A DNA stretch of 64,000 nt from an uncultured Acidobacteriota bacterium (GCA_964436005.1 CAYTBK010000005.1:3041-67040), one strand, 5' to 3'. Counted from the first letter of the stretch, positions 47,211 to 62,050 are shown. The notes: a model not told the origin generated them from the letters alone. Numbers and translations are program-made.

Positions 47211-47240
47211 CCGTAGGCGCCTTCCGCCGGAAGGCGCACC
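47211..47240 (+). repeat. REP-like element (GTAG head + 9-bp perfect palindrome)
   Basis: ccGTAG-gcgccttcc-gccg-ggaaggcgc immediately after a stop codon; second copy at 62022. Confidence 0.6.
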
Positions 47241-47824
47241 CGCAGGCAGGATCTCGGGCGCATCGTGCGCCGCCCCGGAGTGTGGCGGCGAGTCGGCGAG
47301 CCGCCGCTTTCGGCACGGTCCATGGGCGAAAGCGGGCCCGTACCGACCGGACATCCTCATGCATTTCGTCGTGGCCTTCGTTCGGCTCGGAGGCATATTG
47401 CAGAACCCGGTTTCCGGTGCGGCACGGGCGCCGGTTTCGTTCTGCTTCCGCAGGCGAGGGACGTGTGCGGAAAGCGGCAGCTCGGGGCTCGCTGCCGCAC
47501 TCCTGACCTTCGGCTTCGGCACGGCAGCATGGAACGAGAATGCACCGGGCCGCACCCGGCGCCTTTCTCTTTGCCCTTGGGTGCGCCTTGCAGCGCAAGT
47601 CGCCTTCGCCCGGCGCTTGCGCCCCCCCGTGCCCCCGTGGGCCCGATGAGAGAATCCGCCAACCGCGGCCGGGAAGCCTGTTTCTTTTCTTGATCTTTGC
47701 CGGGCCGTCGGCAGGTCTTGCGGGAAGCCCATCCCTTGCCGGAATGCCGGGGCGGGCCGTGCAGCCCCCGATCAGTTTCCCGCAGGAAAACGATAACCAT
47801 AGCCCGACAATCCAGTTACCAAGA

Positions 47825-47961
47825 TCTTTCCCGTAGGGATCAATTTCCATGGGGTATCCGAGCCAATCGAATCCGAACGTCTGCAGGGTATTCATGCCCT
47901 CCGGGCAAGGGCACCGGGGAACGAATCCGGCGGCTATGGACATGTATGCCCTCCGGGCAAC
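47825..47961. repeat. composite dispersed repeat, copy A
   Basis: Units tttcccgtagggatcaat and 2x attcatgccctccgggcaa; ~85% identical to the reverse complement of 57625-57842. Confidence 0.6.
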
Positions 47962-47963
47962 CG

Positions 47964-48107
47964 AACAGCCCCGCTGTTTTTTCTCTGTCGGGACCCGATC
48001 AGTGCCCTTCCCACGCCATCGGCGTGGGATACCTCAGCCCGGGGTTGGCGTTTCGCCAACCCCGGGAAAGAGCGTCACACAACCGTGAATCCCTGAAGGG
48101 GATTCAC
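47964..48107. repeat. cluster of four hairpins, three of them perfect palindromes, in a convergent intergenic region
   Basis: aacagc-ccc-gctgtt+T-run (47964-47982); cccacgcc/ggcgtggg (48010-48028); 13-bp cccggggttggcg/cgccaaccccggg (48038-48066); gtgaatccc/gggattcac (48085-48107). Confidence 0.5.
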
Positions 48108-48213
48108 GGGCGTACGGAAAGGATGACGACGGCAGCTTCTGCCAAAATCCAGGTGCGCCTTGCATCGCCAGGCGGAAGTTCTCTTTAATTTCTGGTCGTC
48201 GATGGTTTGGACG

Positions 48214-58785: not shown

Positions 58786-60396
58786 ATGGATCAACCCAAG
58801 TTCATTTTTGTGACGGGTGGCGTTCTTTCCTCCCTGGGCAAGGGAATTGCCGCGGCTTCCATCGGCACCCTGCTCAAGGCCTGCGGCTACCGGGTTTCCC
58901 TGGGCAAGCTGGACCCCTACCTGAACGTCGACCCGGGGACCATGAGCCCCATCCAGCACGGGGAGGTCTTCGTCACCGACGACGGCGCGGAAACGGACCT
59001 GGACCTCGGCCACTACGAGCGCTTCACCGGCGCCCGCCTGACCCGCGACCACAACCTGACCGCCGGCAAGATCTACCTGCAGGTCATCCGCAAGGAGCGG
59101 CGCGGCGACTACCTCGGCAAGACCGTCCAGGTGATCCCGCACGTCACCGACGAGATCAAGCAGGGCATCCTCCGGCTTTCCCGCGACACCGACGTCACCA
59201 TCGTAGAAATCGGCGGGACGGTGGGCGACATCGAGTCCCTGCCCTTCCTGGAGGCAATCCGCCAGATGCGCAACGAACTCGGCGAGAAGCGCACCCTGTT
59301 CGTCCACCTGACCCTGGTGCCGTTCATCAAGACCTCGGGGGAGCTGAAGACGAAGCCCACCCAGCACAGCGTCAAGGAACTGCGGGAAATCGGCATCCAG
59401 GCCGACCTGATCCTCTGCCGCAGCGAGCAGGAACTCCCCGAGGACATCAAGGCCAAGATCTCGCTGTTCTGCAACGTGTCGCCCGCCGACGTCATCTCGG
59501 CGCCCGACGTGCGCAACATCTACGAGGTGCCCCTGAAGTACCGCGACCAGGGCCTCATCGGGCGGGTCGCCCACCGGCTGGGGCTCGGGGAGCCCCAGGC
59601 CGACCTGGCCCGCTGGGAGGACCTCGTGCGCCGCATGGACGAGCGCACCGAGTCGACGACCATCGCCATGGTCGGGAAGTACACCGAGCTCATCGACTCC
59701 TACAAGAGCCTGTACGAGGCCATGGTCCACGGTGGCCTGGCCAACGGCGTGCGGGCGGACATGCGCTGGATCGACTCCGAGGAACTGACGCGCGAAAACG
59801 TGGCCGAGAAGCTGGCCGGCTGCGACGCGGTCTTGGTGCCGGGCGGCTTCGGGACCCGCGGCATCGACGGCAAGCTGCAGGCCATCCAGTACGCCCGGGT
59901 CAACCAGGTCCCCTTCTTCGGCATCTGCCTGGGCATGCAGTGCGCCGTCATCGAGTACGCCCGCAACGTCTGCGGCCTCGGCGAGGCCCAGTCCACCGAG
60001 TTCGACCCCGGCGCGCCGGTCAAGGTCTTCTACAAGCTTCGCGAGTTGCTGGGCGTGGAGGACATGGGCGGGAACATGCGCCTGGGCGCCTACGAGTGCC
60101 TGCTGAAGCCGGGGTCCCTGGCCGAGCGCATCTACGGGGCCGCCCGCATCAGCGAGCGGCACCGCCACCGCTACGAGTTCAACCGGGCCTACCAGGAGAT
60201 CCTGGAGCAGCACGGGATGGTGATTTCCGGCCTCAGCCCGGACGAGAAGTTCGTGGAGATCGTGGAGCTGCCCGACCACCCCTGGTTTTTCGGCTGCCAG
60301 TTCCACCCGGAATTCAAGTCGAACCCGCTCGATCCGCACCCCGTCTTCCGCGACTTCCTCCGCGCCGCCCGCGAGCGCCGGGACCTGGCCCGATGA
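58786..60396 (+). CDS. pyrG: CTP synthase
   Basis: [15 protein letters not shown]; glutaminase domain GICLGMQ. Confidence 0.9.
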
Positions 60397-61214
60397 GCGC
60401 GTTCTCCATCGGAAACCTGCGGGTGGGCGATTCCCTGGCCGCGCCCTTCTTCATCGCCGGCCCCTGCGTCATCGAGAGCGGGGCGCACGCCTTCTTCCTG
60501 GCCGAGAGCCTGCGGGACATGTTCGCCCGCGTGGGGGCCCCCTTCATCTTCAAGGCGTCCTACGACAAGGCCAACCGGACGTCCATCGGCTCGTTCCGGG
60601 GGCCGGGGCCGGAAGAGGGGCTGCGCATCCTGGAGGACATCCGGAAGCGGCTGGGCGTGCCGGTCCTGACGGACGTGCACGCGGTGGCCGAGGTGGAGAA
60701 GGCGGCCGCCGTGGCCGACGTCCTCCAGGTCCCCGCCTTCCTGTGCCGGCAGACCGACCTCCTGGTCGCCGCCGGGAGGACGGGGCGGGCCGTCAACGTC
60801 AAGAAGGGCCAGTTCCTGGCGCCCTGGGACATGGCCAACGTGGCCGACAAGGTCCGCTCCACGGGGAACGGGCGGGTGATGCTGACCGAACGGGGCCACA
60901 CCCTCGGCTACAACAACCTGGTGGTGGACTTCCGCTCTTTCGCGGTCATGCGCGAGACCGGCTGCCCGGTGGTCTTCGACGCCACCCACTCGGTCCAGAT
61001 CCCTGGCGGGCAGGGGACCGCCTCGGGCGGCGACGCCCGGTTCATCGAGCCCCTGGCCCGGGCGGCGGCCGCCTGCGGCGTCGACGGCCTCTTCTTCGAG
61101 GTGCACGACGAGCCCGCCAGGGCCCTGTGCGATGGGCCCAACGCCCTGCGCCTGGACCGTTTCGAGGGTCTGGTGCGCCGGATCCTGGCGCTGGCCCACC
61201 TGGCCCACACCTGA
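60393..61214 (+). CDS. kdsA: 3-deoxy-8-phosphooctulonate synthase
   Basis: KDO8P synthase motifs ([16 protein letters not shown]); ATGA overlap with pyrG. Confidence 0.9.
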
Positions 61215-61228
61215 TTCAGGAGGGCGAA

Positions 61229-62008
61229 TTGCGCGTTTGCGTCCTGGGCAGCGGCAGCAAGGGGAACTGCACCCTCGTCTCGGAGGGCGGCACCCACGTG
61301 CTGGTGGACTGCGGGCTCTCGGCCCGCCGGACCGTGGCCGCCCTGCGCTCCTTCGGCGTGGACCCGCACAGCCTGGCCGCCATCCTGGTCTCCCACGAGC
61401 ACGCCGACCACGTCTGCGGCCTGCGCACCTTCCTGCGCCACCACGACGTCCCCCTCATGGCCTCGGAGGGGACGGACGCGGGCATCGCCATCCCGGACGC
61501 CGAACCGCGCCGGGTGACTTTCCGGACCGGCGCCGACTTCTCCCTCGGCGGCCTGGAGGTGACGACCTTCCCCGTGTCCCACGACTCCGCCGACCCCTGC
61601 GGCTTCGTCTTCCGCTCCGCCACGGCCGTGGCCGCCCACGTGACGGACTTCGGGTGCATGACCGAGGTGGTGCGCCAGCGCGTGCGGGGGGCCGGCTGCC
61701 TGGTCATCGAGTCCAACCACGACGAGGAGATGCTCAAGGTCGGGCGTTACCCCTGGGACCTCAAGCGGCGGATCCTGGGCCGGCTCGGCCACCTGAGCAA
61801 CCGCACCCTGGCCCGGTTCTTCCTGGAGGACTTCGACGGGGCGGCCCGCCACGTGGTGCTGGCGCACCTCAGCGCCGAGAACAACCACCCCGGCCTCGCC
61901 CTGTCCAGCGCGGAGGAGGCGCTCTCCCACCGCTTCGGGCCCGGGGCCGGGCGGCCGCAGGTGCACGTGGCCGCCCAGGACCGGCCCACGCCCCTCCTGG
62001 AATTCTGA
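61229..62008 (+). CDS. MBL-fold metallo-hydrolase
   Basis: TTG start 5 nt after AGGAGG; HEHADH motif. Confidence 0.7.
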   Translation: MRVCVLGSGSKGNCTLVSEGGTHVLVDCGLSARRTVAALRSFGVDPHSLAAILVSHEHADHVCGLRTFLRHHDVPLMASEGTDAGIAIPDAEPRRVTFRTGADFSLGGLEVTTFPVSHDSADPCGFVFRSATAVAAHVTDFGCMTEVVRQRVRGAGCLVIESNHDEEMLKVGRYPWDLKRRILGRLGHLSNRTLARFFLEDFDGAARHVVLAHLSAENNHPGLALSSAEEALSHRFGPGAGRPQVHVAAQDRPTPLLEF

Positions 62009-62021
62009 CCATCCGCCTTCC

Positions 62022-62050
62022 CGTAGGCGCCTTTCGCCGAAAGGCGCACC
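62022..62050 (+). repeat. REP-like element, second copy
   Basis: ccGTAG-gcgcctttc-gccg-gaaaggcgc; compensatory c->t/g->a change relative to the 47211 copy keeps the stem perfect. Confidence 0.6.

Follow-up and report, generated by a model that had tools for sequence, protein, structure and literature searches.

GTAG-headed hairpins past the ends of two Acidobacteriota genes, a probable small family of REP-type palindromes

The stretch of DNA analysed here, called the window below, comprises 64,000 nucleotides (nt) from an uncultured Acidobacteriota bacterium (GCA_964436005.1 CAYTBK010000005.1:3041-67040). It carries two near-identical hairpin-forming units, each lying shortly after the stop codon of a plus-strand gene, together with a third, decayed copy. 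We interpret the three as a small family of GTAG-tagged extragenic palindromes of an Acidobacteriota lineage, of the type known as repetitive extragenic palindromes (REPs), and we put the probability of this interpretation at roughly 0.6. The recurrence of the sequence is, as an observation, more than chance. The copies in the window are as follows.

47211-47241, plus strand: REP-like copy 1, with a CCGTAG head, a 9-bp stem (GCGCCTTCC/GGAAGGCGC), a GCC loop and an ACCC tail
62021-62051, plus strand: REP-like copy 2, the same 31-nt unit with T-A replacing C-G at stem pair 8
47579-47608, minus strand: degenerate REP-like copy 3, CGAAG-GCGACTTGC-GCT-GCAAGGCGC-ACCC, found by a repeat search

In copy 1, the CCGTAG head occupies positions 47211 to 47216, the stem arms 47217 to 47225 and 47229 to 47237, the GCC loop 47226 to 47228 and the ACCC tail 47238 to 47241; the corresponding parts of copy 2 are 62021 to 62026 (head), 62027 to 62035 and 62039 to 62047 (arms), 62036 to 62038 (loop) and 62048 to 62051 (tail). 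The stem, GCGCCTT[C/T]C paired with G[G/A]AAGGCGC, starts with GCGC and is perfect over its 9 bp, and the repeat can be written as the pattern CCGTAGGCGCCTT-N7-AAGGCGC. The initial annotation of this DNA, made from the sequence alone, had the stem right and misread the loop as gccg by counting one g twice; the loop has 3 nt.

Copies 1 and 2 are identical at 29 of 31 positions, the unpaired head and tail included. The only differences are a C-to-T change at position 8 of the 5′ arm and a G-to-A change at its partner, and it is because these two changes are partners that the stem of copy 2 remains perfect. We estimate at ~0.01 the chance that two random substitutions in 31 nt would hit one stem pair and restore its pairing (9/465 × 1/3). 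A degenerate head-plus-stem pattern proposed in the initial annotation had two exact matches in the window, against none expected from 100 shuffles, and two further assemblies of the organism have copy 2 in identical form. Copy 3 matches at 25 of 30 positions (5 mismatches), whereas <0.005 such matches are expected per simulated window; its pair 8 is G-C, its stem is broken by one A/G mismatch, its loop is GCT and its head is decayed, and it is inverted relative to copy 1, ~340 nt away, the similarity between the two reaching 37 nt.

Outside the window we found three credible copies. The first (L010), in an Acidobacteriota metagenome-assembled genome (contig CBDFLD010000014.1), reads cccGTAG-GCGCCTTTC-tcc-GAAAGGCGC-a and starts 3 nt past a stop codon. 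The second (L126) sits at the end of a Logan contig from a relative of the source organism, with a kdsA gene 80% identical in DNA and an ortholog of the metallo-β-lactamase (MBL)-fold protein encoded next to copy 2 that is 63% identical in protein. The third (L133) is the one match in a 91.6-kb JGI contig. GTAG adjoins the stem directly in copies 1 and 2 and in these three; in copy 3, which is decayed, the tetranucleotide is GAAG. Of the 54 stem cells in all six copies, 53 are paired (98%): pair 8 is C-G in three, T-A in two and G-C in one, and pair 9 is C-G in four and T·G in the L126 and L133 copies. A further candidate (L130) also pairs perfectly; it sits in the C terminus of an open reading frame (ORF) and was not counted. 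The scan of a genome collection used the palindromic core without the head, a query that was too loose, the core alone being uninformative: among the matches listed, it gave single chance matches in unrelated genomes and one real relative, L010.

The initial annotation had taken the paired change between copies 1 and 2 as a sign of selection on structure. The change is real, and the additional copies bring more covariation at the same pair. However, template switching inside quasi-palindromes can yield paired changes in one step, and the compensatory change therefore argues for maintenance of the palindrome, not necessarily for selection on an RNA.

Both intact copies in the window lie in convergent intergenic regions at the ends of operons, with the head towards the stop codon. 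As in the initial annotation, each directly follows a plus-strand gene: copy 1 starts 2 nt past the TGA at 47206 to 47208 and copy 2 starts 12 nt past the TGA at 62006 to 62008, the stop codons of the following genes.

46042-47208, plus strand: gene for a TPR-repeat protein, last of a co-directional run; start inferred from a 388-amino-acid (aa) database protein
61229-62008, plus strand: gene for an MBL-fold hydrolase of 259 aa, last in the run pyrG-kdsA-MBL

Homologs of both proteins carry the annotation Acidobacteria or Terriglobia, which places the window in that phylum. The two proteins are unrelated, which rules out the idea that the hairpins are the conserved 3′ ends of paralogous genes.

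The anatomy and placement of the units agree with those of published GTAG-tagged REPs, and here the initial annotation, which had pointed to the GTAG 5′ of the palindrome as a REP feature, was borne out. The published descriptor calls for GTAG or GTGG 0 to 2 nt 5′ of the foot, a fully paired stem of 7 to 20 bp, a loop of 2 to 5 nt and a G+C-rich foot, with three or more G/C in the first four stem bases (PMC6006769). The units have GTAG within that distance, abutting a G+C-rich stem of 9 bp whose first four bases are GCGC, and a 3-nt loop. GTAG repeats mostly lie downstream of ORFs, between convergent or co-directional genes (PMC3733652), and our copies are likewise extragenic, past the ends of ORFs and in convergent intergenic regions. 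Sub-families with alternative complementary stem residues have been described, along with G-T pairs that suggest an RNA function (PMC3733652), and we found both kinds of variation, at pairs 8 and 9, respectively. Finally, some GTAG families carry short conserved tails of 3 nt (PMC3733652); the conserved tail of 3 to 4 nt seen here, ACCC in this genome, resembles those of the GTAG-1 and GTAG-2 families.

Several points weigh against this assignment or set the units apart from known REPs. GTAG-tagged REPs are known from Proteobacteria, Cyanobacteria, Chloroflexi and the Planctomycetes-Verrucomicrobia-Chlamydiae (PVC) superphylum (Di Nocera et al. 2013, PMC3733652), with REP/RAYT systems (RAYT, REP-associated tyrosine transposase) in E. 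coli and Pseudomonas; Acidobacteriota are not among the phyla listed in that survey. REPs occur in tens to hundreds of copies per genome, often as inverted dimers (PMC3733652, PMC6006769), whereas the 64-kb window holds just three copies, without head-to-head or tail-to-tail dimers and without a class-2 RAYT gene flanked by them. A search of the window for further GTAG-headed hairpins returned only the two known copies and no general enrichment, and the window showed no REPIN-type pairs of inverted REPs; the pair formed by copies 1 and 3 was rejected as a REPIN, its 340-nt spacer not being palindromic. The region within 400 nt of the Y1 transposase-like gene at 58128, the only such gene in the window, contains no copy. 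The strict head-plus-stem pattern had no match among 241 million metagenome records, and a looser pattern gave 10 matches in the metagenome collection, of which 1 or 2 are credible, the remainder being mostly non-pairing and within coding sequence. Moreover, mobilization of the units and a function in RNA are matters that we infer.

With intact copies at operon ends in convergent regions, transcription would place the hairpin in the 3′ end of the mRNA. By analogy with proposals for other REPs, it would most likely act there as a 3′-end barrier to exonucleases or as an aid to factor-dependent or bidirectional termination. Again by analogy, in this case with REP/RAYT and IS200/IS605 systems, the units would most likely have spread as single-stranded hairpins, mobilized in trans by a Y1 HUH enzyme that recognizes the xTAG head together with the hairpin. 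If the family were confirmed genome-wide, Acidobacteriota would join the phyla known for GTAG-tagged REPs, and the unit would offer a compact, defined hairpin (head, stem and tail) with which to probe how mRNA 3′ ends are shaped in a poorly studied phylum.

The same placement could be explained if the hairpin were an immobile functional motif at operon ends, for instance one bound by a protein or RNase, or one that signals termination or stability, kept similar by selection. The intact copies whose context can be read, three in all, lie 2 to 12 nt past a stop codon in the same polarity, their sequence is near-constant between genomes whose housekeeping genes are only ~75 to 80% identical, and the element is very rare in metagenome collections, all of which would suit such a motif. 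On the other hand, the decayed copy lies away from any gene end, the L133 copy has no obvious adjacent stop codon and no candidate binding factor is known. The element is also absent 3′ of the L126 ortholog of the MBL-fold gene, yet a copy lies elsewhere in L126, a comparison weakened by the fact that the downstream gene differs as well. We therefore regard an immobile motif as rather unlikely.

The initial annotation had proposed that a RAYT-like gene at 58128 belongs with the hairpins. A gene with a Y1 transposase domain is present at that position.

58128-58574, plus strand: gene for a Y1 HUH tyrosine-transposase-like protein of 148 aa (Pfam Y1_Tnp, 77 bits); third-position G+C content 0.69, against 0.89 to 0.97 in its neighbors

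This Y1 protein contains DHVH at residues 54 to 57, a WQ motif and the sequence YIDEQQQHH (Y---Q--HH). In an alignment with IS608 TnpA, Y114 falls in the region of the catalytic Tyr, and the HUH motif and the catalytic Tyr are thus both in place. The identification as a RAYT did not stand. The NCBIfam RayT model (NF047646) scored 21.2 bits against a cut-off of 80, and the NCBIfam IS200 model was passed with 60.8 against 55. The protein lacks the class-2 Y motif, Y-x-x-x-N-P (PMC6006769). A search of PDB sequences found the TnpA proteins of IS608 and ISDra2, and in that search E. coli TnpA-REP (4ER8) gave no match at E ≤ 1; with an AlphaFold model of the protein (pLDDT 81), IS200/IS605 transposases came first and 4ER8 at rank 30. 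The Y1 protein is an IS200-like protein of subclass 1.2 and not a class-2 RAYT.

Subclass 1.2 TnpA-Y1 proteins have been described as an IS200-like group of low-copy orphans (Quentin et al. 2018, PMC6006769). Ours resembles them in its 148 aa, in DHVH (DH[IV]H in the subclass), WQ and Y---Q--HH, in the conserved tail at the C terminus, and in a low copy number without the behavior of an insertion sequence (IS); in an alignment of 27 family members, 56 to 72% identical to the query, the motifs are invariant and the mean column identity is 79%. The published members, mostly from Cyanobacteria and Bacteroidetes, are generally without terminal hairpins and have no REPs (PMC6006769), whereas in the window and at eight homolog loci we found the gene between long inverted repeats, with outer hairpins headed by (A)TTAG, GTAG or ATAG. 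The repeats in the window, which with the gene form what we call the Y1 cassette, are as follows.

57943-58057, plus strand: left inverted repeat of the Y1 cassette, including GTAG and then a CCGG... hairpin (~57970-58010)
58035-58053: inner hairpin of the left arm, GGCGCCC-gggag-GGGCGCC
58578-58692, minus strand: right inverted repeat of the Y1 cassette, including ATAG and then CCGGCGGG-cgg-CCCGCCG on the minus strand; the inner hairpin of this arm is GCGCCC-cttcc-GGGCGC

The two arms, of ~115 nt, are identical at 88 of 123 aligned columns, and their alignment scores 51, where shuffled sequences give 21.7 ± 3.0. The same architecture recurs at six homolog loci (L110, L111, L118, L119, L120 and L123), where the flanking inverted repeats are conserved, measure 40 to 100 nt and place an inner G+C hairpin by the gene and a headed hairpin outside it; that outer hairpin reads (A)TTAG-CCNGNNNC-loop-GNNNCNGG-A, with the head outward on both sides. 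At the locus of the closest homolog (L115, 72% identical), on a contig of 1 kb, the outer hairpin, headed by GTAG, is the only one seen, on the downstream side of the gene, and there as in the window the head is GTAG or ATAG and not TTAG. In twelve arms from six of these homolog loci (all except L120), the outer hairpin is 100% paired and has five covarying pairs. With subclass 1.2 Y1 genes between covarying xTAG-headed inverted repeats at every homolog locus examined, there is a defined DNA substrate for biochemical tests.

At L111, we also noticed an extra inverted pair of the ATTAG-headed hairpin upstream, in a REPIN-like arrangement. A separate observation concerns another sequence from the same organism (L001), whose positions ~330 to 370, in the hairpin behind the GTAG head of the left inverted repeat, differ from 57970 to 58010 of the window at ~11 of 37 positions while the Y1 proteins are identical. 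The left hairpin of L001 has a perfect 17-bp stem (CCGGCGAGAGCCGGCCC-ggc-...) where the window has two shorter, overlapping hairpins, a difference to be explained either by hypervariability of the hairpin or by misassembly of palindromic, G+C-rich DNA.

Like the IS200/IS605 elements IS608 and ISDra2, which provide the best sequence and fold matches for the protein, the cassette has an HUH protein with a catalytic Tyr and hairpins near both ends of the gene. Unlike them, it has no tnpB, the gene is single-copy (one copy in the window) and in relatives stands in fixed contexts, and the end hairpins are inverted, their heads pointing outward. Canonical IS200/IS605 elements (subclass 1.1), in comparison, occur as multiple near-identical copies and have subterminal hairpins at both ends on a single strand. 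The inverted, head-outward arrangement resembles that of a REP/RAYT system (REPtron) or a TIRtron more than that of an IS200 element. A Y1 gene between long terminal inverted repeats with double palindromes is also a feature of TIRtrons, with their TIRYT proteins (Di Nocera et al. 2013), and of class 3 Y1 genes, systems whose arrangement is likewise less like an IS than like a REPtron. Acidobacteria are known to have both (PMC3733652, PMC6006769), and the class 3 genes are associated with CnGA-footed hairpins, of which Solibacter usitatus has about 600 copies (PMC6006769). TIRYTs differ from our Y1 protein in being mostly of subclass 2.1, with helix-turn-helix tails and a GGGGWSAS motif, and class 3 proteins differ in having NHVH, a YV..EQ motif and ~178 aa. 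Unlike the repeats of those systems, the cassette repeats were not found dispersed in the window; the same search gave no dispersed copies of the cassette hairpins.

Taken together, these results bear on the proposal that the dispersed hairpins and the Y1 gene form a REPtron, with the hairpins mobilized by the protein encoded at 58128. The gene lies 3.4 kb from copy 2. Its homologs were each found in a single genomic context, and for P0012, P0110 and P0117, each represented by several contigs, the neighboring genes are the same; a single-copy gene in a stable, housekeeping-like context is a trait of domesticated RAYTs. The flanking hairpins are inverted and head-outward, with GTAG or ATAG heads here and in the closest homolog and ATTAG in other clade members. 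On the minus strand, the right flank has at its outer edge the sequence CGTAGGttCGCCTTCCGG, which is similar to the 5′ half of the element. However, the protein failed the RAYT tests given above, subclass 1.2 was published without associated REPs (PMC6006769), the cassette's outer stems (CCGGCGGG-type) are unrelated to the GCGCCTTYC stem of the dispersed hairpins, and no REP-like copy stands beside the gene. All that links the two is the xTAG head, which they share, and the short stretch of similarity at the outer end of the right arm. An IS200-type protein with ends of its own is what the initial annotation had named as evidence against its proposal, and this is largely what we found, in the match to the IS200 model, the inverted repeats with a different stem and the lack of a REP-like flank. 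A REPtron run by this protein is thus unlikely.

A broader version of the idea, which we consider quite unlikely, is that subclass 1.2 Y1 proteins, a highly conserved and single-copy orphan group, are REPtron-like domesticated HUH enzymes with genes placed between inverted repeats of xTAG-headed hairpins, and that in the present Acidobacteriota lineage, in which the head would have shifted from TTAG to GTAG, they maintain the dispersed CCGTAG hairpins. If this were true, biology of the REP/RAYT type would gain a further enzyme subclass and a further phylum.

The REP-type interpretation must also be set against the possibility that the hairpins were left behind by a longer mobile element, as solo ends or as relics, from an end of the IS200/IS605 type or from a miniature inverted-repeat transposable element (MITE). 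Copies 1 and 3 would fit this possibility, being inverted 340 nt apart in a repeat-rich intergenic region of 1 kb and similar over 37 nt. However, their spacer contains no detectable repeat or convincing ORF, and copy 2 and the L010 copy lack a nearby partner and have unrelated flanks beyond the 31 nt, making an origin as relics very improbable.

The region of the hairpins has a predicted folding energy of about −14 to −18 kcal/mol, the sequences 3′ of the two intact copies (ACCCGCAGG and ACCCCCTTTCC) contain no T-run, a terminator scan of the window listed neither hairpin, and Rfam gave no family matching them at gathering or E-value thresholds. It is scarcely credible that they are ordinary intrinsic terminators of independent origin whose likeness is a coincidence in a G+C-rich genome. 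G+C-rich hairpins built on the core GGCGCCTT.C...G.AAGGCGC do occur once each in many unrelated genomes (among the matches listed), but these chance matches are headless, and the majority are unpaired at the free positions. The window copies, in contrast, have the CCGTAG head and ACCC tail in common (0 in shuffles). Independent origins are excluded because the identity is not confined to the stem and includes the unpaired flanks, because the units lie in unrelated contexts and because they recur, head included, in other genomes.

The initial annotation had also connected the hairpins with repeat units of the form cccGTAGGGa(a)tc. These are present, at ~47830 and, in reverse complement, at 57779 and 57830, and their proposed relationship to REPs was not upheld, as they belong to a separate repeat of ~200 nt.

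47775-47962, minus strand: MITE-like copy A, with the cccGTAGGGa unit at ~47830 and terminal inverted repeats of ~34 nt
57625-57844, plus strand: MITE-like copy B, in the opposite orientation to copy A at a distance of 9.6 kb; its units, tCCCTACGGGa, are at 57779 and 57830

The element measures ~190 to 220 nt, and its copies are ~80% identical over the aligned parts and 85% identical in a core of 84 nt. It is non-coding because copies A and B differ by indels of 8 and 22 nt. One end of the element reads GTTTGCCCGGAGGGCATCCAT..CCATAGCC and the other, as an inverted repeat, GTTTTCCCGTAGGGAATCCAT..CCATAGCC, and they pair with each other in the predicted fold. GTA forms the loop of a small palindrome, TCCC-GTA-GGGA, that has a counterpart, GCCC-GGA-GGGC, at the other end; the cccGTAGGGa units are part of a MITE-like element and are not REP heads. 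We saw no target duplication, and there were no further copies in the window or the fetched loci.

Copies A and B of the MITE-like element bracket a 9.6-kb segment that encodes methyltransferases, a carbohydrate-binding module protein, a cpYpsA/SLOG protein, two peptidases and a flagellin. In the left part of this segment (48 to 52 kb), the G+C content is 0.61 to 0.62, against ~0.69.

The 1-kb convergent intergenic region at 47209 to 48213, which is without a convincing ORF, has the look of a "junkyard" in which repeats accumulate. It contains REP-like copy 1, the decayed copy 3, one copy of the MITE-like element and three strong hairpins (48009-48029, 48038-48066 and 48083-48109). On the minus strand, 48012 to 48066 forms a double hairpin that matches the Rfam Acido-Lenti-1 RNA with 27 bits (gathering score 37; E about 1e-4) and keeps the conserved linker GGCU.A..UAU. 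It lies just 3′ of a minus-strand methyltransferase gene, beside the third strong hairpin.

A very large plus-strand ORF at 36848 to 44506 encodes 2552 aa, with tandem RCC1-like repeats of ~150 nt near 37780 to 38770 and FG-GAP/VCBS-like repeats. The next gene after it, at 44517 to 45890, encodes an outer-membrane protein of the FadL/TodX type.

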